IMG/VR virus record: IMGVR_UViG_3300005827_000047
Coordinates: 1 to 64,000 of that record
DNA from: a virus
Direction: 5' to 3' (one strand)
DNA: 64,000 nt
Within the stretch, counting starts at the first letter, position 1. Each line of letters starts with the position of its first letter. The translations under genes were made by a program, and so were the position numbers. Shown here piece after piece: positions 9,680 to 56,486 of the stretch. Below the pieces are notes generated by a model that did no database searches, was not told the origin of the DNA, and worked only from the letters and a program-made list of their open reading frames with translations.

Positions 9680-9689
9680 TAATCCCATA

Positions 9690-24231: not shown

Positions 24232-25055
24232 TGATTTACAAAACTATATCCAGTAAATATATTATCTCTAAGATACTCAGAGATGTTAACCCTCAGAATG
24301 ATAACTTTATAGTAGATGCTTTTGAGTGGATAGGAGAAGCTTTAGAGTTTGTAGGATCTGTTCCTCAATATACTTTAAAGACAGCTAAAATAGATATAGA
24401 AGGTCATAAGGCTATGTTACCTTGTGATCTTTATCTTATTGAGCAAGTAAGCTATAAAGGATATCCTTTAAGATATGGAAGTCAAAGTTATCCCTTTGGT
24501 CTCCATTGCTCTGATTGCATATCTACTCCTCAATCTAGTGCTACTTTAACTCCTCATTTTATTTGGGTAACTAATCCTAATGCAGTTCCTACAGATGTTG
24601 AGAATAACTTTCAACCTTTACAAATAGGATTTGATGGGAGGTTCTCAGATGAAGTTTACTATATAGATAATAATTGGATAAAGACTTCTTTTGAAGAAGG
24701 AGAAATATGTATATTTTATAGAGGATTTGTAACTGATGAAGATGGATATCCTGAAGTACCTGATTATGTGCAATTCAAAGAAGCACTATATTGGTTCTGT
24801 AGGATGAAGATGATAGGTGCAGGATTTAATGATCCTGTATTTAATTATAAAGATGCAGAAGATAGATGGTTAAAGTATTGTTCTCAAGCAAGAGCTAAAG
24901 CTAATATTCCTTCTATTCAACAGATGGAGAATATCAAAGATAGGTGGGTTAGGCTTATACCTCAATTAAATACGGATAAAAACTTCTTTAGAGAGCTTGG
25001 AACTGAAGAAACATTAAGTAGGAATTACACTTACAGAAGTTGGTACAGTAGATGA
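24231..25055 (+). CDS. hypothetical virion-block protein
   Basis: 274-aa ORF coupled to the 1339-aa gene. Confidence 0.4.
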   Translation: MIYKTISSKYIISKILRDVNPQNDNFIVDAFEWIGEALEFVGSVPQYTLKTAKIDIEGHKAMLPCDLYLIEQVSYKGYPLRYGSQSYPFGLHCSDCISTPQSSATLTPHFIWVTNPNAVPTDVENNFQPLQIGFDGRFSDEVYYIDNNWIKTSFEEGEICIFYRGFVTDEDGYPEVPDYVQFKEALYWFCRMKMIGAGFNDPVFNYKDAEDRWLKYCSQARAKANIPSIQQMENIKDRWVRLIPQLNTDKNFFRELGTEETLSRNYTYRSWYSR

Positions 25056-38400: not shown

Positions 38401-41400
38401 CTATAAATACAACAGAGTTCTTACCTTCAGAAATGGATACTATAGATAGAGTAATAAATAGTTACTTCTCTAAAAGAGTAAGTGAAACTATAGATTACTT
38501 TAAGGAGACTAACATCATAAGTGAAGTTAATGGAGTGTACTCTAATATAGAGATAGATGTTACTTCTCTAAGAGAATATAACTCTATAGAAGATGCAATA
38601 GAGAACTATGTATATAATGTGCAAATGGGATATTGGTTCATAGATTCTATTTTACTTGGAGATCCTGCTTTTACTAAAAGTTATGATGATTATACTAAGA
38701 GAGTAGCTTTATGGCAAACTCCCGGTACAGATATAGGGGGGGGTCAATATACTGTTACTATTGTTAAAGATATACTAACTAAGTCTAAGTTTGCAGAAAG
38801 CTATAAGAAAGCTCTTAGTGAAGTAGGAGTATCTAAAGATAAGATAGATGAAATTATAGGAGTAGAAAAAGATTCAAGAGGTAAACCTTCAGGATATTAT
38901 GATATTAATCAAACTGATGCCCAAGGATTATGTACTTGGGATAGGTATCTTGATATTATGAGAAGACAAGGTAATCTAAGACCTGAGATTACTGATAACC
39001 TTGATAGAATATCTAAAGGAGAGATTACTCCTGAAGAAGCTAATATCTTATTTGCGCCGGTTAAAGGAACTAATATAGGTTACAGAATAGTAAATGGTAA
39101 GAGAGTACCTGTTGCAGTTAAGTATTCACTTACTCCTATACTTCCCTCATTTAGGAAATATCCTAAGTTTGCAAGATTATTGGATAACTTAGAGAAAGAA
39201 GGAATAGATGAGTTGATCTTTGAATCTGGATTTAAACTAGGTACTCAACAATTAGGTCAAGTAAATAATCCTAGAAGTTGGAATAAGATTAAGTTGAATA
39301 ATGATTCTTACAGGATTCCTCAAGTAGTTCCTTATAAGGATACCGGTAAGACTTTACTTCCTACTCAATCTATGAAGAATATCATAGTTAACATAAATCC
39401 TGATGCTTTATATAAAGTAGATGATGAAGTAGTTAGTGGAGAATCTCTAGTAATGGAGTATCAAGAAGTAATAGCTCAAAATATTAAAGATGATTTTAAA
39501 AAGGTAATCAAGAAGTTAGATCCTAATGATAAATCTAGTCTGCTTAAGAATCTTCAAAAGCTATTTCTATCCGAATCTAGGAGAAGGAATAATATGCCGG
39601 ATAACCATATAAAGGCTTTAGATATAGTAGATGATGATTTCAGAGTACCTTTATCTTTTCCTTTATTCTCTTCTTCAAGAGAAAGTATGCTATTCTCTTT
39701 ATTCAAGAAGAAAGTATCTACAAGGAAAGTACCTGGATTCTCAGCTGTGAATGTATCTGATTTTGCTACTACTTATGATGAAGATAATAAACTTAACTTC
39801 TATACTGTTAGTTACACAGACCCAACAGATTCACAAGTATTTACTATAGAAGCAGCTGAGATAGCAGTAAGTCAAGATTACTTTAGGAATATAATTAAAG
39901 CTAAATATCCTGAATATAACTTAGAAGGAGATATAGTGTTAGATAAGATACCTGAAGATCTTAGGTATATGATAGCTAATAGGATACCTAACCAAGCTAA
40001 GAACTCTATGGTTATGTGCAAAATAGTATCCCTACTTCCTAAAGAAGCAGCTAGTCAAATTATGCTTCCTAAAGAAGGTACTAGACAAGGAGGATATGAC
40101 TTTGATATAGATAAGAGCTTTATACTAACTAAGAATTTTAAGATAGTTGAAGGAGAGCTTAAAACTATTAAATACTATTCTAAAGAAGATCAAACTAAAT
40201 TAAGATATGGTCAATACTTAGAAGAACTTGCTAAATCAGATCAACTAAGAGAAATACTTAGAGAGTATAAAGTAGATCTCCAAGAGCAAGAAGATATTTA
40301 CTTTATATTAGGTAATGAACTTGAAGAAAAGATCAATAAAGTATTAAGTATAGATTCTTCATCTATTGAAGAAGAGGAGTACTTTGAGTTACTTACTGAT
40401 TACTTATCTATGGAGGGAATTAGTGAAGAAGAGTTCTCTAAACTTTCTATAATAGAGCAGAACACTAAACAAGCTAGAGAGAATAGGATAGTAGACTTCT
40501 ATATAGCTGTATTAAGCTCTAGCCATAACTTCTATGAAAGTATCTTACCTAATAATATGGATACTCTAGCTTCAGTAAGAAAGAAGATTCTCCAAATCCT
40601 TAATCCTATAGAATCCGGTAGAGATATTATAAATGATTATCAACAAAGTCTCACAAGAGAAAAGAATCAAGCTGGTAAGCAACTAGTAGGAGTGCATTCT
40701 AACTCTGCTGTTGCAAGAGCTTATCTTCAAATATTGAAATATGAATCTGATACTGCTGCTTACTTTGATGGTAAAGAGTTATTCTCTATGGGAGCATTTA
40801 AAGACTACAAGGATAACCTAATAACTGATAATCATCTAGAGCTACAAACTGCTGCTGTAGATAATGCTAAAGATCCTATACTTGGAGATTTAAATGATAA
40901 TATTTATACTGCTGATGTATGGGACTTCTTAGTAGATCTAGGAGTACCTTTAGAAACTATAGCTTATTTTATGACTCAACCTATATTAGTAGAGTTAAGT
41001 AAGAGATGGAATAATGGAGGTAGGACTACTTCTGCTGCTGAAAGTGCATATAAATCTTTGAAAGAAGAATACTTTCTATCCGGAGCAGAAGAGATGAAGG
41101 ATAAAAATCTTAATACAAAAGATCTGATTGAGCAGCTTAAGGCAAGTGATCCTTCTTATCAACTAAATGTACTTAATCAATTTATAACATATAAAGAAGG
41201 AGCAAAATCATATACTAACCTTATTCAATCTTTAAGAGCAGATTCTGTTAGAACCTTACCTTCTGTAGTAGGTAATCAACTATATATGGATAGATACAAT
41301 AAAGTAGTTACTAAGGAGATGAAAGATAAACTTCCTATGGTGGACGCATTTACTAAATATGGAATAGATAAACCTTTAGAGTTAGCCTCTGATCTATTTA

Positions 41401-42491
41401 TATGGCCTTCTAAGCTAGTTACTGATGTTAAAGAGGTATTCTCTTCTATTCAATCTGATTTCTTAACTGAGGACATTATAAATGCTTTAAACTATGATCT
41501 ATTTACTTATCTGTTTACTTTACCTGGAAGTCCTTTAACTTATGCTAATCTAAGTGAGTATCTATATGGAGGAGAGAAACCTCCTTTAGCTGATAGAGTT
41601 AAAAGACTTCAAGATAGAGAAAGAGCTTTATTTAAGGAAGATCCTAATTATGTAATGAATCCTTTTATAATGTCTCTTTCTGAAAAAGAAGTTAAAGTAG
41701 ATTCTGTATTCTATGAAGAGGATATGAAAGTTACTAAAAGTAGGGTAGATCATAAACTAGTTATCTTTGATGATACTTCAGGAAGTAGAACTAAAGATCA
41801 AAAATCTGATATCTCAGATAGTTGGTATGATCTATTCTTAGAAGATAAAACAAGTGATTTAGCTTGGGATCTAGCTTTGTACTCTTTCTTTATAAACGGA
41901 TTCAATAGAGGAGCTTATACCTTTATGGATTATATTCCTATTGAGATGCTTGAGGATATGGGAGTTATAGATTACTATAAGAAGATAGAAGGAGCTATTA
42001 AAGCTGGAAGTACATTAAACATAGATATCCAAGACTTTATAGAGAAGTTCACTAGGAATACTAAGAACCAAGGATTAAACTTTATAAAGAGGATTAAGAA
42101 AGAAGGTAAGATACTTGTAGGAGCAACACTAACTAAAGATGAATTAACTGTAGAGGATTCTTATACTATTCAAACTGATACAGGTAGGTACTTTCCTAGA
42201 ATAATAGGATTACCGGATAAAGGATTAAGACTATTTAAGTTTGTTAAGATGGAAGGAGATAAAGGATTATATAAAGAGATTAATCCTCTAGGTACTAATA
42301 TTATAAGAGAGTATATGCCTAATAAGCAAATAGAATCTATCTTTGCACAGAATAATAAGACTAAGGAAGAAGTGATAAGTGAAGATAACTTTATACCTGA
42401 TACTTTACCTGAAGTAATGTATGAACCTGAATTAGATATAGATCAAGTATCAAATGAAGAAGCAAGAGAAAGGATGAAAGATTGTGAATAA
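32496..42491 (+). CDS. giant polyvalent virion protein with zincin metallopeptidase motif and crAss-like two-barrel (DPBB) RNA polymerase domain
   Basis: 3331 aa. 'IIHEFTHSY' HExxH at 36261-36275. 'MIANRIPNQAKNSMVMCKIV...IMLPKEGTRQGGYDFDIDKS' (NRIPNQ 39978-39995; DFDID 40098-40112) parallels bacterial beta-prime 'NRAPTLH...AYNADFDGDQ'. Confidence 0.75.
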   Translation: MPNDILKEIAKLSGKEAPKVVGTYLSPTTMGDSQYDKGILPTYGDEQGALNKIRARKQTNWDSFANMLVRGVGKALITVPETVGYLADIPEMLGITDDYDNKLSEISRQGKSWLDEVMPEYSRSIADSGFKPLEAEWWFRSGDSIVESLGYLIPGYAVGRGAGAALKLLKASGDIQKYGSTIAAAVGLNYAETMQTAGDHYRESVKQYLNTKDEYGNPVYSEQQAKELASEEASSIVWQGKVNTLFELPAMMSLFKSLGKLPISSRSLKGIDSSKFSIAGELGKQMGSEYLEEVGLGFIQSEQERKRDIRLGKEVKEGNVLSRLVNYAFSDQGLTEGLMGALGGGLFGSLAIKGQKEEYTKQQNLVKELTGKNSEEITKVFKDIGEYNKKEAEAAKLGDSIGFTVAQEQKLNVLAAMNAKAGTFSQFLDNLDLAAEAVGDTTNLEEYKKQAKYVEKIVNRVESYQYPREFKDKLIDNLVNQRVYQNTAGKISKDINQIYQDNILDTSISPNLNLLYNKKKILEKAINKSEGKKLEFAKTKLKELESQIETQLPYTIEDGKEGIKRTLEDISKYSNPVVDSLVQPLISQELKYQYEAQESIDSYNDLIKDPQKSQERIMKEDLKEKRVETEEVIEEAKTKIEESPIEKAKEVVKDIDPILEEAGYTPEEIEDITSMLNESIINKEREEVKSEETKQVEESIVNGVFDNYRDQYLPLEEAEESQVSEESIEDKVYEVTPEPGLASTSREFKESNNKVIYNEIGKPITTGQEEEFDFGYLNSPLFNAGSDVELYVDKDSKYMQEGKGNTPETIHIKIRSNGKIIGNLKNFRPTGNSIEDLDTMEVRSYLFNNPDAVLTTKVREKTRGFILNSKVLEDGKLVPARNSVRSLTDTPILAIPTSESEGMVNYEGKSYGPLTKGKLYALIPSANGSLIPVTLNPRKFTKKESLSIVNFIRSNFYPSIASIDRLSKGDNIIINGKPLTVVSIGDKIIGFSKKESKEYSFPLESEVYLNNYLNNKEQLESYINFPSPKVNFTQDRLILPDKYYKYDEYSDEFLANLISNLYLDVSNKKLKDNSKFTSITGKEYNSYQDFILDNNFYTTDIDTIRPFYGAAVYLEKPIISTKVESLEPKEVEVSIEPVKEAVEKVNKADLFGEDSPLRFAKIESLGKSSLVLPGDNKSIIDFAIANSNEYSARVGSLIKERLDLNKDLIVEISDKETLFGPSRYTMFYSSEDNKIVIPKETIENVPQDILAEKIIHEFTHSYTEYALLKAKWYPDKLTKEERIFTDTIGDLYRQASKFIDKSNYGMSNTSEFLAELANPLFAKTLDSIVVDNRSIFKRIVDAILKLLGFKVEPKETLYKKTFDALANYLTSANKVDYSISGEVKYARIPSISRTEQKRRVDTINFMFVKGAINLVKKGPYSFEYLTKNQVKEIYDQIKDYLSDNPLAKSVIDNWDLFVIESKKSLVDFGFLYKEDGDTIEIDDTTKESWQVKAFENNLKDSLSKQVKLYLRFIERVDKEGNYIKDDLGRNTFLPYDEISIYLAKNLADLDTNEEKLNKILELSKIRPELKRIYIDLSTDLTSDNFKNNFFTNFSKTKVKFITVLSEGKDSSSVSKVINTSRKNLAKDILSEWKVTYERELVNGKPNKDKVDKAKELIKVRYGDVVTDEQADNLSKALDSIGIFIPSNRFSGMNKEDISKYITGPSSVNTLFESLSKGYDIFNIVEEQSVKGEGRTLRKLAELESLLRPEDITPSVVNGENNRIYALQNNTAISKEIRRLKKSVTDYLSDPFYALGTNINWGIDRLMKDREFRENFDVAVFDSERLNQPGRKGTPYNNINPSLWNKVKINAVLNQGAKYGWFPFPTPADKENIYFAYLPKHRLTKEGDLLTGESLEMYRKIVLSETARIFNAHSELFNWEEKDLIVGYHYESSLSPKEAKDRAKEGVFSGKAFEYHIFKELNDLGFNKKAINTTEFLPSEMDTIDRVINSYFSKRVSETIDYFKETNIISEVNGVYSNIEIDVTSLREYNSIEDAIENYVYNVQMGYWFIDSILLGDPAFTKSYDDYTKRVALWQTPGTDIGGGQYTVTIVKDILTKSKFAESYKKALSEVGVSKDKIDEIIGVEKDSRGKPSGYYDINQTDAQGLCTWDRYLDIMRRQGNLRPEITDNLDRISKGEITPEEANILFAPVKGTNIGYRIVNGKRVPVAVKYSLTPILPSFRKYPKFARLLDNLEKEGIDELIFESGFKLGTQQLGQVNNPRSWNKIKLNNDSYRIPQVVPYKDTGKTLLPTQSMKNIIVNINPDALYKVDDEVVSGESLVMEYQEVIAQNIKDDFKKVIKKLDPNDKSSLLKNLQKLFLSESRRRNNMPDNHIKALDIVDDDFRVPLSFPLFSSSRESMLFSLFKKKVSTRKVPGFSAVNVSDFATTYDEDNKLNFYTVSYTDPTDSQVFTIEAAEIAVSQDYFRNIIKAKYPEYNLEGDIVLDKIPEDLRYMIANRIPNQAKNSMVMCKIVSLLPKEAASQIMLPKEGTRQGGYDFDIDKSFILTKNFKIVEGELKTIKYYSKEDQTKLRYGQYLEELAKSDQLREILREYKVDLQEQEDIYFILGNELEEKINKVLSIDSSSIEEEEYFELLTDYLSMEGISEEEFSKLSIIEQNTKQARENRIVDFYIAVLSSSHNFYESILPNNMDTLASVRKKILQILNPIESGRDIINDYQQSLTREKNQAGKQLVGVHSNSAVARAYLQILKYESDTAAYFDGKELFSMGAFKDYKDNLITDNHLELQTAAVDNAKDPILGDLNDNIYTADVWDFLVDLGVPLETIAYFMTQPILVELSKRWNNGGRTTSAAESAYKSLKEEYFLSGAEEMKDKNLNTKDLIEQLKASDPSYQLNVLNQFITYKEGAKSYTNLIQSLRADSVRTLPSVVGNQLYMDRYNKVVTKEMKDKLPMVDAFTKYGIDKPLELASDLFIWPSKLVTDVKEVFSSIQSDFLTEDIINALNYDLFTYLFTLPGSPLTYANLSEYLYGGEKPPLADRVKRLQDRERALFKEDPNYVMNPFIMSLSEKEVKVDSVFYEEDMKVTKSRVDHKLVIFDDTSGSRTKDQKSDISDSWYDLFLEDKTSDLAWDLALYSFFINGFNRGAYTFMDYIPIEMLEDMGVIDYYKKIEGAIKAGSTLNIDIQDFIEKFTRNTKNQGLNFIKRIKKEGKILVGATLTKDELTVEDSYTIQTDTGRYFPRIIGLPDKGLRLFKFVKMEGDKGLYKEINPLGTNIIREYMPNKQIESIFAQNNKTKEEVISEDNFIPDTLPEVMYEPELDIDQVSNEEARERMKDCE

Positions 42492-45400
42492 GTGTCCAAT
42501 AAAAAATGATTCTTGGATTAAGTTAGTAAATGAAGTAGGTGAAGTTAATGCCTATAAGTACTTTATACTTAATAATGAAGAGACTCCTTCAGAAGAGCAA
42601 GTAAATAAGATTATAGAGAATAGGAAACCTACTCCCTCTAAACTACTTAAATTGTATAATGCGGATATTAATGGCTTCATACCTAAGAATGTTATAGTAG
42701 AGAAGCTTAGAATAGATGCTAAGAAATTAGGATTAGAAGTTAGAGAAGCTTCAAATGGTAAATACTATTTAACTAAAGAAGGTAAGAAGATTAACTTTTA
42801 TTCCTTATCCGGAGAAGGAGATAGAAATAGTGAACTTGAGAATAAGTTAAAAGGAATACTCTCTAATATAGGAATAAAAGTAGAATCCTATAGTTCTCTA
42901 GTAAATAAATTAGGAGTAGATGCTTCAGGTGCAGCAGATATCTTAAATAAGATAATCTATATTTCAGAAGATAAAGCTAAGTTAGATACTTTACCAGAAG
43001 AAGTAGCTCACTTCTTTATAGCTGGATTAGGTACGGATAATCCTTTAGTAAGTAGATTAATGAACTCTATTAAAGATCATCCTATCTATAAAGAAGTAGA
43101 GAAAGAGTACTCTTCTTTAAACTTATCTGAAGATATCCTTAAGGAAGAAGCTGTAGGTAAGTTGCTAGGTAAGTATATAGTTCAAGAGTTCAATAACTCA
43201 GAAGGAGTAACTATTTGGAATAAGTTTAAAGGTACTTTAGATCTTATTATAGATAAAGTACTTAAGCTATTCAAGAAGATAACCAATAAAGATCTCTATT
43301 CACAAGTAGAGGAGATATACGGAGATTTTGCTAAAGATATACTTAAGGGTAACATCAATCCTTCTAAAGAAGATAAGGTATTCTATCAATTAAGTAAAGA
43401 GTTAAAAGAGTATTCTAAAATAGTTGAGGATAAACTTAAAGCTATTAAATCTAGAGTAATTAAGTATTCCGTATATCAAAATGAGTATAAGTCTTCTGAG
43501 AAGATACAGGAATACTTAGATACTACTATTCAAAGAGCTAAAGAGATAGAAGAGTTAAATAAGTTAAATCACGAAGAAGCTTACTCAAAGTTATTACTCT
43601 TAGTTAATGATGGGCTAAAGGATATAAAAGAGAGGATATCATCTGCTCCTTTAAGTCAAATGGGATTATCTAGATCTATAGAATTTGTAACTTCTTATAA
43701 GGATATAAATCTAGTAGAATCAGATAGTGAAGTGATAAAAAAAATAGCTGGCTCTATAGAGGGAGAAAGAGTAAGGATAGAAGCTGAGTTACTAAAGTTG
43801 AGTCAAGAATCTTTATCTGAAATAGTGCAAGAAGAATCTTTATCTGATAAAGAAGATTTGATTACTCCTATAAAAGATCTATCCTTTGATCAAAGATGGT
43901 TAGGAGCTATGGCTAATGCTGATGATACTTTATTAGCTGTTGTAGATAAACTATATAAGAGAGAAGTAGTAGATAAGACTAGTGATATTATAAGAACCTT
44001 TAAGTATAATCATGATAAGCTATATGAGAAGGTTAATAAAGAAGATCTAAGTTTACTTTTTGAGAAAGTAGATAGTAGACCTAATTTCTATATGCTTCAA
44101 ACTAATGATCCTATTAGGTTTACTTCTAAGTATAAGTATGAATACTACTTATTGATGGATAAAGCTAAGATGGAAGCTGATGCTTATCCTAAAGGATCTG
44201 AAGGAAGAAAAGATGTATGGAAAAAGTTCTTTAGTGAAAATCATACTAGAGGATATAGAGATGAATATGGTAATTGGATAAATGGAGAACCCTTAGCTAA
44301 GTTTGAGAATGAGGATTATAAAAAGATTCAAAGTAATAAGGATCTTAAAGAGTACTATGATTTCATAATGAGATGGAAAGAGAACTCTGATAATCTTATG
44401 GGATTATCTTCTTATCCTTTAAGAAAGTCTAGTATTCCTTATTTCTTTTCTGATTTATCTGAGAAGATAGCTAAGAATAAATTATGGAACAGCTTAAAAG
44501 GATTAGGTAAAGAGATCTCTTCTTCTATAGAGTATACTAAAGGAGATAGAGCTTTAGTAGATGAATCCGATAAAGAAGTTAAAGTAATCAGAAAGCAAGG
44601 AGTAGCTAGAATAGATGAATCTCAAAGAACTTATAATATTCCTGATATTATATCAGCTTATGTATATTCAGCTAATCTTTATAGAGCTAAAAGAGAAGTT
44701 CAGGGAATCATAGAATTAGCTAAGACTTATGCTGAAGCAAGAAAGATTCCTAAAACTAATTGGAGAGGTAAGGTACTTGATCAAAATGGAGATCTAGTAA
44801 ATATAGAAGGAGCTAGTTCTGCTTCTTACCAAAGATTCAAAGATTGGTATAATATGATCTATATAGGAGATACTGATAAAGAGAAAGGCTTTAAGATCTT
44901 CGGTAAAGAAGTTTCAGATAAAAAGATAGCTAAAGCATTTGGTAAGTATTCTTCTATAACAGCTTTAGGATTAAACTTATTCTCTGCTGTATCCAACATA
45001 GTATATGGAGGATCTATGCAAGTAATAGAAGCTATGGGAGGAGAGTTCTATTCTGCTAAAGATTATTTATGGGCTACTAAGAAATATGGAGAAAGTGCAT
45101 TATCTGATAAGATGAAGTTAATGCTTGATTACTATAGAGTATTACAAGATACTTCTTACTTCGGAGATAAGAAGAGTATGATAAGCAAAATACTATTTGG
45201 AGCTAACTCAGCTGGAGAGCACATGATGCAGTCCAGAATATTCTTAGCTATGAGTCATAACTATAAAGTTAAAGATGCTAAAGGAGTAGAATATAACTTA
45301 TGGGATGCTTATGAAGTAGTAGAAGGAAGACTTAAACTTAAAGAAGGTATAGAGTTATCTCAAAGAGAGATATCTGATTTTAGAAGAAAAGTAGAGGGAG

Positions 45401-46080
45401 TTAACCAAAGACTTCATGGTAGATATACAGATTTAGATAATGCAGCTTTAAGTCAAACAGCTTTAGGATATCTAGCTTTACAATATAGGAAATGGATTCA
45501 TCCGGGATATGAAGCTAGATTTAGAAATCAATACTTTGATGAAAGGTTAGGTCAATATATTAAAGGTAGATACTTATCTTATCTAGACTTCTTTAAAAGC
45601 ATTAAAGAGCTTAAATCTATTGCAGCAGGTTGGAATAATCTATCTGATCATGATAAAGCTAATATGAAGAGGAATATAGCTGAATTAGTATACTTAACAG
45701 GAACCATCCTACTATTATCTGTATTAAGATCTTTATCAGAAGATGATGATGAACTTGATGATTCTAAAGCTTTTAACTTCTTTATGTATCAAGTAGATAG
45801 GTTTAACTCTGAATTGAAATTCTATAACATAGGTATAGTAACTGGAGATCTTACTAAACTAATAAGAACTCCAGCTGCATCTATCTCTGTTATAGAAAAT
45901 GTAGGTAGGTTATTAAATGATACTCTTCAATATCCTTTTAGAGATGAAGAAGAGAATATAGTTAAGGGAGAAGAGTATACTAAGATTCAAAGAGACTTTG
46001 AAAGACTTATTCCTCTTATTAAAGAAACAAGGAGATGGTCAAACTTAGAAGATCAAGCTACTTACTTTAAGACTTACTAG
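42484..46080 (+). CDS. large virion/ejection-associated protein (unknown function)
   Basis: 1198 aa, 8-nt overlap with the RNAP gene. Mostly helical, with hydrophobic segments 'SSITALGLNLFSAVSNIVYGG' and 'ELVYLTGTILLLSVL'. Last gene of the + strand arm. Confidence 0.4.
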   Translation: MNKCPIKNDSWIKLVNEVGEVNAYKYFILNNEETPSEEQVNKIIENRKPTPSKLLKLYNADINGFIPKNVIVEKLRIDAKKLGLEVREASNGKYYLTKEGKKINFYSLSGEGDRNSELENKLKGILSNIGIKVESYSSLVNKLGVDASGAADILNKIIYISEDKAKLDTLPEEVAHFFIAGLGTDNPLVSRLMNSIKDHPIYKEVEKEYSSLNLSEDILKEEAVGKLLGKYIVQEFNNSEGVTIWNKFKGTLDLIIDKVLKLFKKITNKDLYSQVEEIYGDFAKDILKGNINPSKEDKVFYQLSKELKEYSKIVEDKLKAIKSRVIKYSVYQNEYKSSEKIQEYLDTTIQRAKEIEELNKLNHEEAYSKLLLLVNDGLKDIKERISSAPLSQMGLSRSIEFVTSYKDINLVESDSEVIKKIAGSIEGERVRIEAELLKLSQESLSEIVQEESLSDKEDLITPIKDLSFDQRWLGAMANADDTLLAVVDKLYKREVVDKTSDIIRTFKYNHDKLYEKVNKEDLSLLFEKVDSRPNFYMLQTNDPIRFTSKYKYEYYLLMDKAKMEADAYPKGSEGRKDVWKKFFSENHTRGYRDEYGNWINGEPLAKFENEDYKKIQSNKDLKEYYDFIMRWKENSDNLMGLSSYPLRKSSIPYFFSDLSEKIAKNKLWNSLKGLGKEISSSIEYTKGDRALVDESDKEVKVIRKQGVARIDESQRTYNIPDIISAYVYSANLYRAKREVQGIIELAKTYAEARKIPKTNWRGKVLDQNGDLVNIEGASSASYQRFKDWYNMIYIGDTDKEKGFKIFGKEVSDKKIAKAFGKYSSITALGLNLFSAVSNIVYGGSMQVIEAMGGEFYSAKDYLWATKKYGESALSDKMKLMLDYYRVLQDTSYFGDKKSMISKILFGANSAGEHMMQSRIFLAMSHNYKVKDAKGVEYNLWDAYEVVEGRLKLKEGIELSQREISDFRRKVEGVNQRLHGRYTDLDNAALSQTALGYLALQYRKWIHPGYEARFRNQYFDERLGQYIKGRYLSYLDFFKSIKELKSIAAGWNNLSDHDKANMKRNIAELVYLTGTILLLSVLRSLSEDDDELDDSKAFNFFMYQVDRFNSELKFYNIGIVTGDLTKLIRTPAASISVIENVGRLLNDTLQYPFRDEEENIVKGEEYTKIQRDFERLIPLIKETRRWSNLEDQATYFKTY

Positions 46081-50554: not shown

Positions 50555-50584
50555 TTAAAAAAGCTAAGGGAGACTATATCTCCC
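50555..50584 (-). terminator. rho-independent terminator (candidate)
   Basis: On the - strand: GGGAGA-UAUAG-UCUCCC, which overlaps the stop codon of the RusA-like gene, followed by UUAGCUUUUUUAAUUU. Confidence 0.5.
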
Positions 50585-51191
50585 AAAGCTTAAGTTGTTG
50601 TACCTCTGCTCTTAAATCCTGATAGAATGTATATATTATCTTTCTATCATCGATACTAGCTACCGGAGTAAACTTAGGACCACTACCAGGTTGAGTAATA
50701 AACCTAACTGAATCATCAGGTATCTTACCTTCACTTACTAGTAAATCATTAAATACTTTAGAATAGATTACTCCAAAGTTTTCAATATCCCAATTAGCTG
50801 CTCCGGGTATAGTAAATAACTCACAATCTATAATAACAGGTAATTCTCTAATTATTGGTAAATTAACTACATAAGGATATAGGAATTCCTTTAATCCATT
50901 TACTATTCTTACCCTAGTTAAATAGTTACCTGCATATATATGCTGATTGTTTATAGATAGATATTTAGGAGTACCTGCTGATCTTGAATTAGCCATAATT
51001 CTATTACCAGCTTCATCTAAAATATATCCTTCTATATCTGTTAAGTTATTCTTATACCTTTTAGGTATTTTAGTTTTTCGTAGCTTACCAGGATTCTTAT
51101 TATAGTATATAGGCTTCCTCTTCTTTGAGAGAGTTACCTTCATTAAGAACTGGGGTATCACTACTTTGAATAATAACCTTTTTTCTTCCAT
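50574..51191 (-). CDS. RusA-like Holliday junction resolvase (candidate)
   Basis: 'IIDCELFTIPGAANWDIENFGVIYSKVFNDLLVSEGKIPDDSVRFI' parallels the RusA core '[36 protein letters not shown]'. The true start may be the internal Met at 51143. Confidence 0.5.
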   Translation of the reverse strand: MEEKRLLFKVVIPQFLMKVTLSKKRKPIYYNKNPGKLRKTKIPKRYKNNLTDIEGYILDEAGNRIMANSRSAGTPKYLSINNQHIYAGNYLTRVRIVNGLKEFLYPYVVNLPIIRELPVIIDCELFTIPGAANWDIENFGVIYSKVFNDLLVSEGKIPDDSVRFITQPGSGPKFTPVASIDDRKIIYTFYQDLRAEVQQLKLWEI

Positions 51192-51915
51192 TCTCCTCTA
51201 ATCGTTTTTCTTCAAGAAATTTTATTACTTTGGATGCAACCTTATTCCTTTTAGTGGGAGTTTTGGATAGCTTTAAGGATTGTACACCGAATAATTTATT
51301 AAGGTTTGCACTCTTTGCTATAATTGGTGTAGAATCAAATATTGATATAATAGATGTTGAACGGATTACTTTATCTAAAGTATAAGAATACCAAAATTGA
51401 AATATAGAATAATCCGGTTCAATACGATCTTTAATGCAACTTTTATAGTATTCTACATCTTTCCTATGCACCATAATTGCATAAGCTATTTCAAAATAAC
51501 CTTTAGCAAAAGATAGATTTATATTATTTAAAGTACTAGAATTATCAAACCATCTATTTCTATACACAAATCCAAGTAATCCATTCCAAGCTAATGAATA
51601 TTCTTTTGATCTGTAAATAAATGGACTTGTTCTTACAACTTCTATTCTTTCAGTTTCTCTAAGAGAATTACTAGAGAATCCATAAGAGTCAAGATTACGA
51701 GGTATCCTTAACTTAAAACTAGTTGAGTTTTCATCAAAGTTAGGATCACAAATAATAGCAGATGCAGGAACATACTCTGAATCATTTATCTGGATATTAA
51801 TATACTTATCATCTACACTAATATAAGGATCTTCCTTAAAAGCTAAAGAATTATATAGATGCTTTTCACTTTTAGTAGCTATTGATATTATATCATCTTT
51901 AATATTCAACCTCAT
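51100..51915 (-). CDS. hypothetical protein (partner ORF of the Ubl/E1/JAB operon)
   Basis: 271-aa ORF. Its start overlaps the stop of the E1-like gene by 17 nt. No diagnostic motif. Confidence 0.45.
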   Translation of the reverse strand: MRLNIKDDIISIATKSEKHLYNSLAFKEDPYISVDDKYINIQINDSEYVPASAIICDPNFDENSTSFKLRIPRNLDSYGFSSNSLRETERIEVVRTSPFIYRSKEYSLAWNGLLGFVYRNRWFDNSSTLNNINLSFAKGYFEIAYAIMVHRKDVEYYKSCIKDRIEPDYSIFQFWYSYTLDKVIRSTSIISIFDSTPIIAKSANLNKLFGVQSLKLSKTPTKRNKVASKVIKFLEEKRLEENGRKKVIIQSSDTPVLNEGNSLKEEEAYIL

Positions 51916-52750
51916 AATATAGACTTGTTAATTCTGTTTTAATACTAAAAGGCAAAGAAGTTATCTCTGCTCCTTTTATATAGTTACTTAAATAATTAGT
52001 CAGCATAGAAACCATATAAGCAGCTATCATATAAGCATAGTGGGTAGTTACTTTTAAAGCACAGTTCTCTCTAACTACTTCAGAATCCTCAAATAGAGTT
52101 TCTTTATATCTATCCATATTATCTTTAGTGACAATATAGATTTGAATATTGCTATACAATAATCTACCATCTATAAATACACAAGGAATATCTCCTTCAT
52201 TATCTATAGCTTCTTCTTTCCAACTTTCAAATAGATTTTTCCTTGCTTCCATATTATCAAAGCAAGAAAAGCAAATAGATTCTATAAGAGATTCATTTGT
52301 TACCTTTTCAAATCTAGGGATTACATTATTTTCACCTGAGAATAACTTACTTAACTCTTGTACAGCATATACTTTTTTCACGTGTATCTGAGATACAGTA
52401 TAAGCTTGACCTCCTATATTCTCTTCTCCTACTGAATCATTATCCCATACAGTTATAGTATGACCTAATCTAGATAATAACATAGTTAAATGAGATCCTA
52501 TTCCTCCTGCTCCTCCTACTGTTATTTTGTAGAACTTATTATACCAAATTGCATCTTTAAATCTAGATGTTCTTCTATTATAATCAGTTACTTCAATATA
52601 ATCACTAATAGGTTCTTCAGAGGATTCTTCATCATCTTCTTCATCCTCATAATTATGATAATCTTCATCTTCTATATCTTGATTTTGATACCTAGAGTCT
52701 TTATCAAGATTTAAGATATTGTGATATCCGGGAATATTAACTAACTCCAT
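51899..52750 (-). CDS. ThiF/MoeB/E1-like adenylyltransferase
   Basis: 283 aa. Rossmann signature 'KITVGGAGGIGSHLTMLLSRLGHTITVWDNDSVGEENIGGQ' (GxGxxG at 52493-52516). Upstream 'RRTSRF' (RxSRQ-like) and 'CFDNMEARKNL' (DNxxxR). Acidic N-terminal extension. Confidence 0.75.
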   Translation of the reverse strand: MELVNIPGYHNILNLDKDSRYQNQDIEDEDYHNYEDEEDDEESSEEPISDYIEVTDYNRRTSRFKDAIWYNKFYKITVGGAGGIGSHLTMLLSRLGHTITVWDNDSVGEENIGGQAYTVSQIHVKKVYAVQELSKLFSGENNVIPRFEKVTNESLIESICFSCFDNMEARKNLFESWKEEAIDNEGDIPCVFIDGRLLYSNIQIYIVTKDNMDRYKETLFEDSEVVRENCALKVTTHYAYMIAAYMVSMLTNYLSNYIKGAEITSLPFSIKTELTSLYYEVEY

Positions 52751-54014
52751 TTTGATACTTCTTTTTAGGACCTTTGTTAGAAACAGTTTTATTAAAAAGT
52801 GCTAGATGTTTATTAAATTCATCTTTGCAAACTTCTTTTAAAGATTCTCTTATGCTTATTTGATATTCTCCTAAAGTATGATAGATAAGAATAGATTCAT
52901 AAAGTAACTTAAATGCCTCTACTTTAATCATCTTATAGTAGATAATATTCTTTACTTCTTTAGTTTTATAAGCAGTTTTATAAGCAGATTCAAACTCTGA
53001 GAATACTTGCTCTAAGTTTAATACTACAGCTTCTTTAATACCTTTCTTATCTTTAATATTAATACTCTTTAAATCCCTTATGTCTTCTAAAAGAGCTTTA
53101 CATAGTTCATTTATAACTGCATAAATACTTTCAAAGTCAACATTTAAAAGAATCCTTAACACAGATAATGTATTAGTTTCTTTTATATTAAAAGTCTCTT
53201 TCCAAGAATTGTAAGGATTTCCAGTTACTAATTTATTAGGAAAAGTATCATCTTCTTCAAATGAAAAAGCTCTGTTATAATTATCAAGAGTATCCCATTC
53301 TTTAGGATAATATCCATGAATACCGGAGAATCCAATGCTTCTAGTTTTCTTAGCTTCTTTAAGTTTATTAAATCTATCTACAACATCCGGATAAGGGAAA
53401 TCCTCTACTTCTTTAAATATTTCACATTCATAATAATGCACTACATCAGGTACTATAGTTTTATGCTCTATCAATTGAGAAGTTCTAGGATCTCTATAGC
53501 TAACTGTATTAGTAATATCAGCTACAAAGCAGGCTCTTGCACAACAATCTCCTTTAGCATTTACTATAACTGATAAATAAGGAGATCCTACTTTATGTCC
53601 TTGATTGTATATTTTAGTATTATCTTCTAGCTCTTCCTCATCTGTTCCACTAAAGAACACAGACATATTATGGTGACTATGGCAATATCCCCTAAATCTA
53701 TACTCTCCATTAGAGTATTTAGAATCATATTCCATAATTTGCTCTATATGTTCTACAGGTTCCCATCCAGTAGCTCCACTAGTTCCAAGATCACATAGAA
53801 AGAAATCTTCAACTAGAAACTCTAAACTTTCAGGATCTTGTAAAGTACCTTCACTTTTATAGAATAAAGCACCACTCCATTCTAAATTAGGATAAGCTGA
53901 ATGAAGATAATCTACTATCTTTAAGAACTTTAAACTTAATGTTACTTTAGGCTTCCCACTCAATTTCACCATAGATGATGTTAGAGCAGAAGAATTCTTT
54001 ATATTCGTTGTCAT
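52737..54014 (-). CDS. JAB/MPN (JAMM) metalloprotease domain protein with about 250-aa helical C-terminal extension
   Basis: 425 aa. Complete JAMM signature: 'NLEWSGALF' (Glu) and 'HSHHNMSVFFSGTD' = HxH-x7-S-x2-D (53640-53681). Confidence 0.75.
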   Translation of the reverse strand: MTTNIKNSSALTSSMVKLSGKPKVTLSLKFLKIVDYLHSAYPNLEWSGALFYKSEGTLQDPESLEFLVEDFFLCDLGTSGATGWEPVEHIEQIMEYDSKYSNGEYRFRGYCHSHHNMSVFFSGTDEEELEDNTKIYNQGHKVGSPYLSVIVNAKGDCCARACFVADITNTVSYRDPRTSQLIEHKTIVPDVVHYYECEIFKEVEDFPYPDVVDRFNKLKEAKKTRSIGFSGIHGYYPKEWDTLDNYNRAFSFEEDDTFPNKLVTGNPYNSWKETFNIKETNTLSVLRILLNVDFESIYAVINELCKALLEDIRDLKSINIKDKKGIKEAVVLNLEQVFSEFESAYKTAYKTKEVKNIIYYKMIKVEAFKLLYESILIYHTLGEYQISIRESLKEVCKDEFNKHLALFNKTVSNKGPKKKYQNGVS

Positions 54015-55326
54015 ATTTACTTTTAATATTATTGTACTTTTCTATAATTAGGTTAACTAAACTGTTATAAGTTGCAGCTGCTAATATTGAAGAATCTATA
54101 GAGTTTTCTTTAACTCTTAAGGATAACTTTTCTACTTCATGATCTATATCTTCTAAAGGTATAGTTCTCATAAGTATAGTAGAATCTCCCCACTCTACTC
54201 CTTCACCTAAAGACCTATCTCTACTGCTATCAAATCCTCTGAATTCAACAAAAGAGTTATACAAAAAAGAATAAGGATGAGTAACTTCTATGCTATTAGA
54301 ATTGATTATACTACATAAGTAATCAGCTACTTTATTATAAGGTAAGAAATCTATTTGAGCTTCAAACTTCTCATTAATCTCAAAACTATTTATAAGTTTA
54401 GTGCAATCTAAAGAAGATTCAGGATTATTAAGCAGATCTAAAGCTACCTCTTTAGCCTTAACATCAAGTAATACACTTGGAATACTTTGATAATTTAATA
54501 CTCCTACTAGATTTATATGAGGAGTACCTTCTATACTTTCATAGCTCATGTGTTCAGGTAATTGAGCTAAAAATGCTTCAAAATATGTTTCTTCAAACTT
54601 AGTAGATAGCTTTGAAATAAGCTCTACTAGTGCTGATTCTCCTAAACAAAAATTAGTATAGTTACGAGTAATTCCACTACTTAAATGAGAATGTCTATAA
54701 CCATAATCAACTTCTATTCTAGTGTAAGTAGCTCTTGTTCCTTCTAAAGATCCTATAAATTTAGGAGTATCAACTATATTAATTTTAAATCTTACCAATA
54801 AATCTCTAAGAAGTTTAGATTCTGAGTTTCTATTGGTGATAATTATCTTAGGAAATCTTAAGTATAAAGTTAATACTCCTAATTCTGTTTCAGAATAAGT
54901 ATAATTATCTTCTCCATAAATAACCTTAGCTAAAGAAGTAAATGAGTCTAATACTCTTTTCTTATTTGCTTCTACCTTACTTAAATCTATTTTGTTTAAG
55001 CTTAATAGCTTTTTGATTGTTGTTAGAGGTAAAAGCAAAATAATATTTAAAGAATAAATATTACTAAAATCTTCTTCTATAATAGCTAAAGGTGCATATC
55101 CTGATGCTTCTGAAAATATATAATAAGTTATTCCTGAATCTATGATAATACCTAAGTAGCAATATCTATTACCTTCAGGAATATTTTTATTTACAATAGA
55201 AGGAGGAATATGTTCTCTAAACTCTAGAAAACGGTTTTTAGTAGACTCACTAAATCTATATAGCTCTCCAAAGCTTGCTGTTTCCGGATTAAAGTTTGTA
55301 TCTTCTTTGGTTAATTCTATTTTCAT
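53947..55326 (-). CDS. hypothetical protein (partner ORF of the Ubl/E1/JAB operon; speculative E2-like or substrate role)
   Basis: 459 aa, between the Ubl-like and JAB genes, overlapping the JAB ORF by 68 nt. Contains 'YRHSHLSSGITRNYTNFCLGES', which loosely resembles an E2 HPN...C active-site loop. This is weak evidence. Confidence 0.4.
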   Translation of the reverse strand: MKIELTKEDTNFNPETASFGELYRFSESTKNRFLEFREHIPPSIVNKNIPEGNRYCYLGIIIDSGITYYIFSEASGYAPLAIIEEDFSNIYSLNIILLLPLTTIKKLLSLNKIDLSKVEANKKRVLDSFTSLAKVIYGEDNYTYSETELGVLTLYLRFPKIIITNRNSESKLLRDLLVRFKINIVDTPKFIGSLEGTRATYTRIEVDYGYRHSHLSSGITRNYTNFCLGESALVELISKLSTKFEETYFEAFLAQLPEHMSYESIEGTPHINLVGVLNYQSIPSVLLDVKAKEVALDLLNNPESSLDCTKLINSFEINEKFEAQIDFLPYNKVADYLCSIINSNSIEVTHPYSFLYNSFVEFRGFDSSRDRSLGEGVEWGDSTILMRTIPLEDIDHEVEKLSLRVKENSIDSSILAAATYNSLVNLIIEKYNNIKSKYDNEYKEFFCSNIIYGEIEWEA

Positions 55327-55329
55327 AAT

Positions 55330-55361
55330 AAATAAATTAAAGAGGGGTTTTACCCCCTCTT
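55330..55361 (-). terminator. GC-rich hairpin (attenuating terminator or regulatory stem)
   Basis: On the - strand: AGAGGGG-GUAAAA-CCCCUCU followed by UUAAUUUAUUUAUU. Sits between the Ubl-like gene and the 459-aa gene, 14 nt before the latter's ATG. Confidence 0.5.
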
Positions 55362-55362
55362 A

Positions 55363-55608
55363 TTAATTACCAGCTTTAGTTCTAGTTTCTATGATGTAAA
55401 TAGTTACACCATCATCATTAGGAAGAGTATCATTAGGAGATAATACCCACTGTTTACCTCCAGACCAAGTATTTCCTACTTTAGCTCTTTTACCTTCTAA
55501 TTCAGGATATTTATCACATACTTCTTTCCAAGTAATGTTTTCACCTACTTGATACTCTTCTACTGTACCTCCAGAAAAGGTATCTACTATTTTAATTGTT
55601 CTAGCCAT
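55363..55608 (-). CDS. ubiquitin-like / ThiS-MoaD-like beta-grasp protein (candidate)
   Basis: 81 aa. 'TIKIVD..GGTVEEYQVGENITWKEVCDKYPEL...VLSPNDTLPNDDGVTIYIIETRTKAGN' fits the beta-beta-alpha...beta layout of ThiS/MoaD/Ub. The penultimate Gly is followed by a single Asn. Confidence 0.5.
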   Translation of the reverse strand: MARTIKIVDTFSGGTVEEYQVGENITWKEVCDKYPELEGKRAKVGNTWSGGKQWVLSPNDTLPNDDGVTIYIIETRTKAGN

Positions 55609-56486
55609 TTTAACTGTTTTTTAATTTCTGTTTCTGTTTTTAGTTTACCTGAAGATTTAACCATATCAGTAAAATCTTTAGTAGGACTTATTATTGAAGG
55701 TAGTCCAAACTTCTCTTTATAATAATTACTTGCTTTTATTCCCGGAGCATCATTATCAAAATTTATGATTACTCTAAATCTAGAGATTAAATATTGCATC
55801 ATAGAATCACTTATAAAAGTATTCTCACTAGCAGGAGATATAGCATTAATACCTATTGTACTAAAGAACATTACATCTTTTAAAGACTTAGTAATTACTA
55901 AAGTCTTATCAGATAAATTAATTTGATTTATTCCTTGAAGGCAATTACCTTTAGAATAGAATCTTTTACTTAAAGGTATATATACTTTATATCCTCTTCT
56001 AAACTTATATAGGAAAGCAAGATTATCCTTATAATCAACATATAAAGGGTAGTCCCCCTTAAGTAGAATCTTAAGAGGGAAAACCTTATATTTAATTAAG
56101 GTAGATTTTTCAATAGAATACTGATTCCAATACTCAAAGTGTTTACTCTGATAATCACTAACTTTAAAAGTTAGTTCACTTTTCTCCTCTACTATAGTCT
56201 CTTCTTGGAATCTATGTTTCTTAGTAATCTCTTTACTAAGTATAATATTTAAAGCCCCACTAAAATTGACATTATACATTTTCATTATAAAGTCAAATAT
56301 ATCTCCTCCACTGTTGCATCCAAAGCATTTAAACTTTTTACCCCTAATAGATAAACTAGGAGTATCATCCTTATGAAAAGGACATATAACTTTACCTTGA
56401 GATGTTCCTGCAAACTTTTCAAAAAGCATCTCTTCAGTAAATAAACTTAAAATTTCTTGTTTCTTATCTTTTAAGTTTATGATCAT
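55587..56486 (-). CDS. DnaG-type DNA primase (CHC2 zinc finger + Toprim)
   Basis: 'CPFHKDDTPSLSIRGKKFKCFGCNSGGDIFDFIMKMY' is a zf-CHC2 signature. Toprim-like 'LVITKSLKDVMF' and 'INFDNDAPG'. Confidence 0.8.
   Translation of the reverse strand: MIINLKDKKQEILSLFTEEMLFEKFAGTSQGKVICPFHKDDTPSLSIRGKKFKCFGCNSGGDIFDFIMKMYNVNFSGALNIILSKEITKKHRFQEETIVEEKSELTFKVSDYQSKHFEYWNQYSIEKSTLIKYKVFPLKILLKGDYPLYVDYKDNLAFLYKFRRGYKVYIPLSKRFYSKGNCLQGINQINLSDKTLVITKSLKDVMFFSTIGINAISPASENTFISDSMMQYLISRFRVIINFDNDAPGIKASNYYKEKFGLPSIISPTKDFTDMVKSSGKLKTETEIKKQLKWLEQLK

Follow-up and report, generated by a model that had tools for sequence, protein, structure and literature searches.

A predicted ubiquitin-like conjugation cassette in the replication module of crAss-like phages

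A cassette of five adjacent genes in a crAss-like phage genome appears to encode a ubiquitin-like protein (Ubl) together with enzymes for its processing, activation and conjugation. The cassette lies on the minus strand of a 64,000-nucleotide stretch of DNA (positions 1 to 64,000 of the IMG/VR virus record IMGVR_UViG_3300005827_000047; hereafter the window) and comprises genes for an 81-residue Ubl precursor, a 459-residue protein which is probably E2-like, a 425-residue JAB/JAMM metallopeptidase, a 283-residue ThiF/E1-like enzyme and a 271-residue protein. We consider it moderately probable that these genes represent a phage-encoded Ubl conjugation pathway, with an architecture like that of the bacterial Bil systems but built from divergent protein families, residing in the replication module of crAss-like phages. 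Domain identities can be assigned to the Ubl, JAB and E1 proteins and their catalytic residues are conserved; the five genes are syntenic among relatives and the cassette is linked to a primase gene. A preliminary description of the window had proposed that a set of Ubl, E1 and JAB genes is carried here by the phage itself. As judged from protein comparisons, this proposal appears to have withstood the tests named for it, which concerned the fold of the Ubl, the grouping of the E1 and the co-location of the genes in other genomes.

Conservation of the cassette in crAss-like phages

The genes for the Ubl, the E2-like protein, the JAB peptidase and the E1 are found in this order at 73 of the 76 IMG/VR loci which have enough upstream sequence, as established with hidden Markov models (HMMs) of the four families. 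In the first viral loci collected, the homologue of the 459-residue protein, the JAB gene and the E1 gene follow one another in 14 of 14 cases, and the gene just upstream always starts with a homologue of the 81-residue protein. Co-location of the genes in other genomes, on which the proposal of a functional set had been made to depend, is thus near-constant. A primase gene lies directly upstream of the cassette at 51 of the 76 IMG/VR loci (5-kb flank) and at most of the loci from metagenome-assembled genomes (MAGs); the neighbours across loci are primase, helicase and Sak4-like genes.

A relative of the E1 is encoded on 523 IMG/VR contigs. Such relatives occur in the FpV4 group of Flavobacterium psychrophilum phages, in the Bacteroides crAss-like phages crAss001, DAC15, the PhiCrAssBcn series and Kolpuevirus, and in uncultured crAss-like genomes; the cassette order is also kept in crAss001 (Gp79 to Gp76), cr111_1 and FpV4. 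The crAss-like affiliation of the window itself is distant: a 483-residue open reading frame (ORF) at 8228-9679 shares about 30% identity with major capsid proteins of Crassvirales. A blastn comparison of the locus with phage records found nothing; the relatives are too divergent at the nucleotide level, and protein searches were therefore needed.

The existing labels of the genes in FpV4, cr111_1 and crAss001 are 'hypothetical', 'metalloprotease domain' and 'thiamine biosynthesis protein ThiF'. No prior description of the cassette was found in the searchable literature, where coverage of subscription journals is partial and where, for example, comparative surveys of E1-like proteins may mention it. 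The earlier remark that its author was unaware of a described equivalent in crAss-like phages has to be amended in that the cassette is widespread in this group and two crAss001 genes already carry the labels 'ThiF' and 'metalloprotease'.

A collection of species-representative genomes yielded 23 loci only, all of them on MAG contigs, and most of these carry the cassette together with crAss-like replication genes. The cassette is present on a contig (L022, JAZGEW010000157.1) binned as the MAG of a Promethearchaeia (Asgard) archaeon, and on two long contigs, L025 (640 kb) and L026 (374 kb), of Bacilli and Puia MAGs. In all three it is complete, and it stands mostly alongside crAss-like replication genes. 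Mis-binning could account for these occurrences, as could the integration or co-assembly of phage or a broader range of hosts.

A ubiquitin-like precursor and a JAMM peptidase

The 81-residue protein had been taken for a beta-grasp protein, and this assignment is borne out by an AlphaFold2 model built on 23 homologues and by the ubiquitin and SUMO structures found as its neighbours in the PDB. The model (predicted local distance difference test, pLDDT, of 78) shows the order strand-strand-helix-strand-strand, followed by a further strand and a disordered tail, which is the order of a beta-grasp. Among the 50 PDB matches listed by Foldseek, nearly all are ubiquitin, SUMO, Caldiarchaeum ubiquitin, ISG15 or other ubiquitin-like domains (probability 1.00, template modelling (TM) scores of 0.5-0.67, E about 1e-3). 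Neither the single protein nor the 23 members of its family matched any Pfam or NCBIfam family, the described Ubl families ThiS, MoaD, ubiquitin, Prok_Ub and PRTRC_C included, PADLOC likewise gave no match, and a profile search of the PDB returned no ubiquitin-like protein.

The family is defined by a domain of about 78 residues ending in K-x-[KR]-[AS]-G. In the window the tail reads K-A-G80 and continues for one additional residue, Asn81. Gly80 is invariant in an alignment of 13 sequences, and in 75 of 77 distinct homologues the predicted fold closes with a Gly. The residues which follow it are non-conserved and number 1-217 across the 77 homologues; there are none in the closest relative, locus L039, where the Ubl is about 66% identical and terminates exactly at ...TRTKAG. 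Nor is the terminal Asn of the window conserved, as relatives finish in Gly, Lys or Ala, or bear long extensions. Judging by these alignments, an invariant Gly with a variable tail is what characterises a modifier that needs a peptidase to expose its C-terminal Gly. Maturation by the JAB protein, previously suggested from the single residue after the Gly, is strengthened as a prediction by family tails of 0-217 residues. The same Gly-plus-tail pattern has been reported for type II BilA, where BilC pre-processes the Ubl (Chambers et al., PMC10557695).

Most of the Ubl homologues bear an extension of 50-217 amino acids past the Gly, examples being L038:3420-4097 (crAss001 Gp79), L001:2652-3521 and L006:5153-5755. 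The extension includes a conserved sub-domain, with the consensus LSYKELRAAIKK...KNYTQKSTEDLRELLNKY, and an acidic helical tail; it has no Pfam match and no counterpart within the window. The short-Ubl phages inspected (L004/L005, L009, L011/L012) have instead a separate small acidic ORF after the Ubl gene, and the window has neither. By analogy with ubiquitin-ribosomal protein fusions, the extension may be a functional partner which is released from the Ubl.

The candidate processing enzyme is the 425-residue protein, in which a complete JAMM signature had been noticed. Family alignment confirms it: E45, H112-x-H114, S122 and D125, which make up H-x-H-x7-S-x2-D and the Glu upstream of it, show no variation among 16 homologues. 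The family profile matches CSN5, RPN11, AMSH-LP and archaeal Rpn11-like chains in the PDB (E 0.002-0.4), and the protein itself matches Pfam Prok-JAB at E=0.0021 (18.3 bits, below the gathering cutoff of 25). Some 250 C-terminal residues lie past the JAMM region, their character being mostly unassigned.

Group I introns (Rfam RF00028) are inserted in the JAB gene of two different phages at the same site, directly after the H-x-H codons (L010:6687-7140, 79.5 bits; L039:8654-8913, 57 bits), and the insert in L039 carries an antisense LAGLIDADG-like ORF at 8825-9703. Homing introns typically settle in the most conserved sites of functional genes, and their presence at the JAMM codons of two relatives fits a strongly constrained, functional JAB gene. 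No intron was found in the JAB gene of the window. A second group I intron in L039 (2690-2882, 58.5 bits) lies in the replication module, where it overlaps the 3' end of a gene resembling GIY-YIG/NUMOD1 homing endonucleases.

The E1-like activating enzyme

Profile comparisons place the 283-residue protein in the E1-like superfamily, with no marked affinity to a particular branch. Pfam ThiF (PF00899) matches it at 48.6 bits (cutoff 28.1, E 7.6e-13), and its best NCBIfam match is the ThiS adenylyltransferase ThiF. A profile of 12 members matches MccB, UBA5, PaaA, ThiF, TcdA, UBA3, UBA1, MoeB, SAE2 and Cap2 in the PDB. With ThiF/E1 enzymes matched and the GxGxxG, Asp, Lys and DNM motifs kept, the protein goes with E1-like enzymes, as had been supposed, and not with dehydrogenases.

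The enzyme consists of one adenylation domain, at residues ~60-283 (a core of about 225 residues), behind an acidic extension formed by residues 1-60. It is minimal in size, comparable to ThiF, MoeB and UBA5. Its invariant residues are R63, W69, G80, G82, D105, N111, Q115 and K126, to which the motifs F-D165-N-M-x-A-R-K, I-D-G-R196 and C230-x-x-K-x-T and the glycine motif GxGxIG may be added; in the window enzyme DNDSVGEENIGGQ stands between VGGAGGIGS and FDNMEARK. Throughout the nucleotide site (G80/G82, D103/D105, N111, Q115, K126 and D165-N166) the residues are invariant or nearly so. Cys230 presumably corresponds to the crossover-loop Cys of ThiF, MoeB or UBA5. The best single-sequence match of the enzyme in the PDB is 9egb, a recent deposit of a 265-residue 'THIF-type NAD/FAD binding fold domain-containing protein'; entries 9egb, 9egc and 9egd have 7 chains each. 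No associated paper was traced, and the biology of this protein might bear on the cassette.

An enzyme of this kind might also modify the C-terminus of a small protein in the manner of MccB or PaaA, for example by nucleotidylation or cyclisation, the product being a modified effector peptide or protein; the 459-residue protein would then have an unrelated role. MccB (2e-11) and PaaA (1.9e-9) are the best PDB matches of the E1 profile, and the window Ubl ends in Asn, the residue on which MccB acts. These matches, however, are limited to the generic nucleotide-binding half of the enzyme, and the substrate would be a folded beta-grasp rather than a short peptide. The C-terminal Asn was rejected as an MccB-type substrate because it is not conserved whereas the Gly is. 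We regard a modification of this type as very improbable.

The candidate E2-like enzyme

The 459-residue protein is probably an E2-like conjugating enzyme, an assignment which draws on its predicted structure. An exhaustive HMM search retrieved 2,997 cluster representatives (50% identity) of its family at E<=1e-3; the family is both large and unannotated, and the protein itself matches PHROG 15310, 'unknown function'. Word-indexed searches returned only 7 homologues of this protein and 2 of the Ubl, and the depth of both families comes from alignment-seeded and exhaustive HMM searches.

Across 78 members of the family S213, H214, C227, G229, E263, S264 and P269 are invariant, and Y210, H212 and F226 are nearly so. 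They form two motifs, Y210-x-H212-S213-H214...F226-C227-x-G229 and E263-S264-x-E-G267-x-P269, within a conserved core of residues ~108-305. The string HSH...NFCLGES, to which attention had been drawn in the window protein, falls within the invariant His/Cys motif of these members. The AlphaFold2 model, which has a pLDDT of 87-97 over residues ~110-345 and is poor at both ends, has a core that begins with a helix (115-137) and a meander of four antiparallel strands (142-202); the His/Cys loop comes immediately past the meander, with H214/C227 and H212 sitting in it, and a number of helices complete the core. As modelled, the core has the layout of a UBC/E2 domain, and it displays the features by which Iyer et al. 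2006 (PMC1779556) recognise prokaryotic E2-like domains.

In a Foldseek search of the PDB with the model, chains of the bacterial E2 BilB (8tz0_D/C, 8tyz_C) hold ranks 1, 2 and 6 and the eukaryotic E2 Ube2W holds rank 12, all with weak scores. The corresponding fold search of BFVD returned only uncharacterised crAss-like proteins, and the protein has no PADLOC match.

Layout of the locus and the fifth gene

The six ORFs and the hairpin reported on the minus strand were all recovered (Table 1). Along the series of genes for the 459-, 425-, 283- and 271-residue proteins the overlaps are 68, 14 and 17 nt. The genes do overlap start to stop, as noted before, albeit not in the simple 4-nt start/stop manner.

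Table 1. Features of the cassette and its upstream neighbour in the window
Feature	Coordinates	Strand	Basis and remarks
DnaG-type primase	55587-56486	-	Pfam Zn_ribbon_DnaG 1.8e-15 and PHROG DNA primase; conserved upstream neighbour, listed as context
Ubl precursor, 81 residues, C-terminal ...TRTKAGN	55363-55608	-	ORF and AlphaFold2 model
GC-rich stem-loop followed by T-rich run, between the Ubl and enzyme genes	55340-55361	-	Terminator scan
459-residue protein, probably E2-like, contains YRHSHL...NFCLGES	53947-55326	-	ORF, family alignment, AlphaFold2 model
Putative E2-like core of the 459-residue protein, residues 108-305	54412-55005	-	Coordinates computed from residue numbers
JAB/JAMM (MPN+) metallopeptidase, 425 residues, contains EWSG...HSHHNMSVFFSGTD	52737-54014	-	Motif and profiles
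ThiF/E1-like protein, 283 residues, VGGAGGIGS...VWDNDSVGEENIGGQ...FDNMEARK, acidic N-terminal 60 residues	51899-52750	-	Pfam ThiF
271-residue protein, fifth cassette member	51100-51915	-	Synteny and weak profile homology

The 3' end of the primase gene overlaps the start-codon region of the Ubl gene by 22 nt (55587-55608). Co-transcription of the two is therefore likely and translational coupling possible, and the unit would end at the hairpin. The hairpin has an 8-bp GC-rich stem and a 6-nt loop (AAGAGGGG-GTAAAA-CCCCTCTT, followed by TAATTTATTT) and scored as terminator-like. At 16 of 21 homologous loci, those of crAss001 and L039 included, an equivalent stem-loop and T-run precedes the E2-like gene and follows the Ubl gene or, where there is one, the small ORF behind it; its sequence is not conserved. 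The element would appear to be intrinsic-terminator-like or attenuator-like.

The 271-residue ORF had been described as unassignable. This holds in so far as the protein has no Pfam, PHROG or NCBIfam match, yet synteny and profile comparison show it to be a conserved member of the cassette. A gene starts between -47 and +2 nt from the E1 stop in 30 of 30 loci. In L039 a full-length homologue (39% identical) occupies the same position, and when a profile of the window and L039 proteins was compared with the 2,059 ORFs of 37 loci, its six best matches were the ORFs immediately after the E1 gene in six other loci. The E-values of these six matches are weak (0.014-0.29); their coincidence in position is far beyond chance. 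No pairwise similarity was seen between the 271-residue protein and crAss001 Gp75, and the genes after E1 in the remaining loci likewise showed no detectable homology. Taken together, comparison of the loci points to a fifth member which is conserved yet evolves fast, whose translation is coupled to that of the E1 gene, and which might act as an adaptor, target or specificity factor.

After the cassette, a 205-residue ORF on the minus strand (50574-51191) is weakly matched in PHROG by RusA-like Holliday junction resolvases, with E 1e-5 at best, and a homologue of it also follows the cassette in L003 and L039. Elsewhere in the window, very large ORFs occupy the plus strand at 25052-29071 (1,339 residues), 32496-42491 (3,331 residues) and 42484-46080 (1,198 residues); they may be the virion-RNA-polymerase/cargo region of a crAss-like phage. 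Coding strand and GC skew both flip at ~46,000, where this plus-strand block ends.

A proposed conjugation pathway

In the pathway proposed here, the Ubl would be made as a precursor, with a beta-grasp domain ending in K-x-[KR]-[AS]-G and a tail of one Asn in the window and of up to 217 residues in relatives. The JAMM peptidase would cut after the Gly, as the family pattern and the precedent of BilC, QbsD and Rpn11 suggest. The ThiF/UBA5-like E1, probably acting as a homodimer, would use ATP to adenylate the exposed Gly carboxylate and would probably receive the Ubl on Cys230 as a thioester. From there the Ubl would be handed to Cys227 of the E2-like core, His212/His214 taking the role of the histidine in the HPN motif of E2 enzymes, and would be transferred to lysines of phage or host targets. 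Specificity could come from the large non-catalytic parts of the 459- and 425-residue proteins or from the 271-residue protein. The JAB peptidase may also undo conjugation, and the hairpin after the Ubl gene might cause the tag to be made in excess over the enzymes.

The constant setting among replication genes suggests, from context, a function connected with the replication programme in its early or middle phase. Replication control, host takeover and counter-defence can be put forward as candidate roles.

Support, doubts and alternatives

A number of points weigh against a conjugation pathway. The case is made from sequence and predicted structures, and it names neither a target nor an E3. 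Confidence in the Ubl model is moderate, in both its pLDDT and its fold-search E-values. The Foldseek scores of the 459-residue protein are weak (E 0.16-1.3, best probability 0.6, 90 columns, low TM scores), an hhalign comparison of its family with four eukaryotic E2s gave a probability of 0.5%, and the protein together with 77 relatives has no Pfam (Prok-E2 included), NCBIfam or PDB sequence match. In none of the 12 aligned E1 members does Q115 follow the canonical Arg of the N-x-x-R-Q motif, the position being taken by Gly, Ala or Ser. Furthermore, the top PDB sequence matches of the E1 profile, MccB and PaaA, are peptide-adenylating enzymes which feed no E2.

Because the Foldseek scores are weak and the hhalign result is non-significant, the E2 assignment is held to be probable and not established. 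The earlier conjecture that the 459-residue protein supplies the missing E2-like component is favoured by its predicted topology, its conserved His and Cys residues, its weak top matches to BilB and the gene order shared with BilABCD; these fall short of proof. The intactness of the E1 nucleotide-binding site likewise needs qualification, since it extends to the GxGxxG, Asp, Lys and DNM elements but not to the N-x-x-R-Q Arg. This ATP-contacting residue has been swapped family-wide while the remaining residues of the nucleotide site stay invariant.

The weakness of the E2 assignment is one argument for a sulfur-carrier pathway, in which the Ubl, adenylated by the ThiF-like enzyme, would carry a C-terminal thiocarboxylate and the 459-residue Cys/His protein would use its sulfur, for example in thiolating a nucleotide, tRNA or phage DNA. 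Such a pathway would suit an E1 which is a minimal domain of ThiF/MoeB size and has ThiF as its best NCBIfam match, as well as the tight linkage of the cassette to DNA-replication genes; JAB trimming, moreover, is established for QbsD and Mec+ (discussed in PMC1779556). Against it, no rhodanese, cysteine desulfurase, ThiG/MoaE/CysM-like or other gene for sulfur handling was found in the window neighbourhood or conserved across the loci and annotated relatives. The structures nearest to the Ubl model are those of ubiquitin and SUMO, not of ThiS or MoaD, the Ubl tail is [AS]-G, not G-G, and the 50-217-residue extensions on most Ubls resemble ubiquitin-fusion precursors. The 459-residue core, for its part, has a predicted E2 topology and an E2 as its best fold match. 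A sulfur-carrier function is on these grounds unlikely.

We assign a similarly low likelihood to a counter-defence role in which the JAB peptidase strips host Ubl or cGAS conjugates from phage or host proteins, or the phage Ubl and E1 serve as decoys or competitors against Bil and the Cap2/Cap3 proteins of type II CBASS. On this view the cassette would not be there to tag targets of the phage's own. A phage JAB or decoy Ubl would be useful, since Bil attaches its Ubl to phage tail proteins and CBASS uses Cap2/Cap3 (10.1101/2023.09.04.556158; PMC10557695). The E1 also shows weak similarity to Cap2 E1 domains in PADLOC and the PDB, and the fifth gene evolves fast, in the style of an arms race. 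A simple antagonist, however, would have no need of four or five strictly co-conserved genes with intact E1, JAB and Cys/His catalytic residues. The cassette, furthermore, keeps its place next to the primase gene in the core replication module of phages that diverge widely from one another, a setting unlike a variable accessory region, and in the models scanned it shows no sequence membership in Bil or CBASS families. It may also be that a genuine conjugation system serves counter-defence, in which case the two readings would not compete.

Returning to the conjugation pathway, a more far-reaching version of it may be formulated: that phages encode a complete Ubl machinery, made up of a Ubl that undergoes processing, an E1 of minimal and an E2-like enzyme of giant size, a JAMM protease and an adaptor, and that this machinery is an ancient core part of the crAss-like replication module and tags host or phage proteins during infection, for example replisome, nucleoid or defence factors. 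On this wider proposition our judgement is evenly divided. To our knowledge, prokaryotic Ubl conjugation has so far been demonstrated only as an antiviral weapon of bacteria (Bil, CBASS Cap2), with archaea using a housekeeping-like modifier. If true, the proposition would provide a phage-side counterpart of bacterial Bil and CBASS, and of the hijacking of ubiquitin by eukaryotic viruses. With a complete and strictly conserved cassette encoded by viruses, phages too would be seen to use Ubl chemistry, and the group concerned is among the most abundant in the human gut. It would raise the questions of which proteins are tagged in infection, whether tagging controls replication or host takeover, and how the system interplays with Ubl-based immunity of the host. 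A probable function is also provided for some 3,000 unannotated protein clusters (E2-like) and for several PHROGs of 'unknown function'. The hypothesis is directly testable, as cultured phage-host pairs have the cassette: crAss001 infects Bacteroides intestinalis, DAC15 infects B. thetaiotaomicron, and FpV4 infects Flavobacterium psychrophilum.

Comparison with known systems

A pairing of Ubl and JAB is already known from phages, the only one in the literature that we are aware of. In the tail-assembly genes of lambda and T1, protein I is a Ubl in which a second domain comes after a conserved C-terminal Gly, and protein K, a JAB joined to NlpC/P60, is predicted to release it (PMC1779556). The I/K pair has neither an E1 nor an E2-like protein and belongs to the tail module, whereas the present cassette has both and belongs to the replication module.

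The sulfur-carrier systems CysO/Mec+, QbsE/QbsD, ThiS/ThiF and MoaD/MoeB resemble the cassette in their small beta-grasp proteins with a C-terminal Gly and their minimal ThiF-type enzymes, and in CysO/Mec+ and QbsE/QbsD a JAMM protein trims residues past the Gly. The cassette differs in having no sulfur-transfer or biosynthetic partner genes, in a Ubl modelled as ubiquitin/SUMO-like, and in the co-conservation of an E2-like Cys/His protein.

Type II CBASS combines an E1 adenylation domain with a JAB peptidase that acts at a C-terminal Gly, as is predicted for the cassette. Cap2, however, is a fusion of E1 and E2 whose substrate is the CD-NTase; the cassette proteins are separate, and their substrate would be the Ubl. 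No CD-NTase or effector gene was found among the cassette neighbours, and the matches of the window E1 to Cap2 E1 domains in PADLOC and the PDB are weak and cover the nucleotide-binding region only.

The ParB-related, ThiF-related cassette (PRTRC), which we take to be the same as operon type 6d of Iyer and colleagues, is likewise a Ubl-type cassette borne by mobile elements near replication or partition genes. Type 6d combines a small Ubl bearing a C-terminal Gly with an E2-like protein, a JAB, an E1 and extra uncharacterised proteins (Iyer et al. 2006, PMC1779556). PRTRC itself comprises proteins A, B, C, E and F, a ThiF-family protein and a ParB homologue. Membership in PRTRC was considered on account of weak NCBIfam matches, PRTRC_A matching the window JAB at 16.4 bits (cutoff 101.8) and PRTRC_ThiF the window E1 at 41.1 bits (cutoff 144.75). 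It was rejected after family-wide scans, in which the PRTRC models, PRTRC_B and PRTRC_C included, gave zero matches among 78 E2-like and 23 Ubl members. Pfam and PHROG scans revealed no ParB homologue among the cassette neighbours. PRTRC is, moreover, carried by a plasmid or an integrative and conjugative element, the present cassette by a phage.

In its architecture the cassette resembles BilABCD, bacterial antiphage operons of a ubiquitination-like kind, the types I and II of which are the operon classes 6E and 6C/CEHH (Iyer, Burroughs, Aravind). Ubl, E2, JAB and E1 activities stand in identical order in both (73 of 76 loci, with the E2 identity of the cassette protein being probable). Both have a universally conserved Ubl Gly with trailing non-conserved residues which are removed by the JAB protein, a step described for Bil (PMC10557695) and predicted for the cassette. 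It is also BilB, as the E2 of the E1-E2-Ubl complex 8tz0/8tyz, which gives the 459-residue core its best, though weak, fold match in the PDB. As regards sequence membership in Bil, the defence-system and NCBIfam models gave generic E1 matches only, PADLOC 2.0 (2023) being a release which may lack Bil models.

The differences from Bil are nonetheless considerable. Bil is found in bacterial defence islands, the cassette in the replication module of lytic crAss-like phages. The E2-like and JAB proteins of the cassette have ~400-460 residues, in contrast to the ~134-146 residues of the E2 chains in 8tz0/8tyz. BilD consists of an IAD, an AAD and an alpha-helical CYS insertion (PMC10557695), whereas the cassette E1 has a single adenylation domain of ~225 residues. 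Unlike BilD, this enzyme apparently carries its Cys in the crossover loop, as UBA5 does. The conserved His lies upstream of the Cys in the 459-residue protein, in the classical HPN position, and downstream of it in BilB. The Ubl tails reach 217 residues in the cassette family and nine in BilA, and the fifth coupled gene is a feature of the cassette which BilABCD does not share. On these comparisons the cassette falls outside Bil, PRTRC, type II CBASS and the sulfur carriers alike, and it is set apart by its phage carrier, its replication setting, the size and families of its E2-like and JAB proteins, its Arg-less single-domain E1, its Ubl extensions and its fifth gene.

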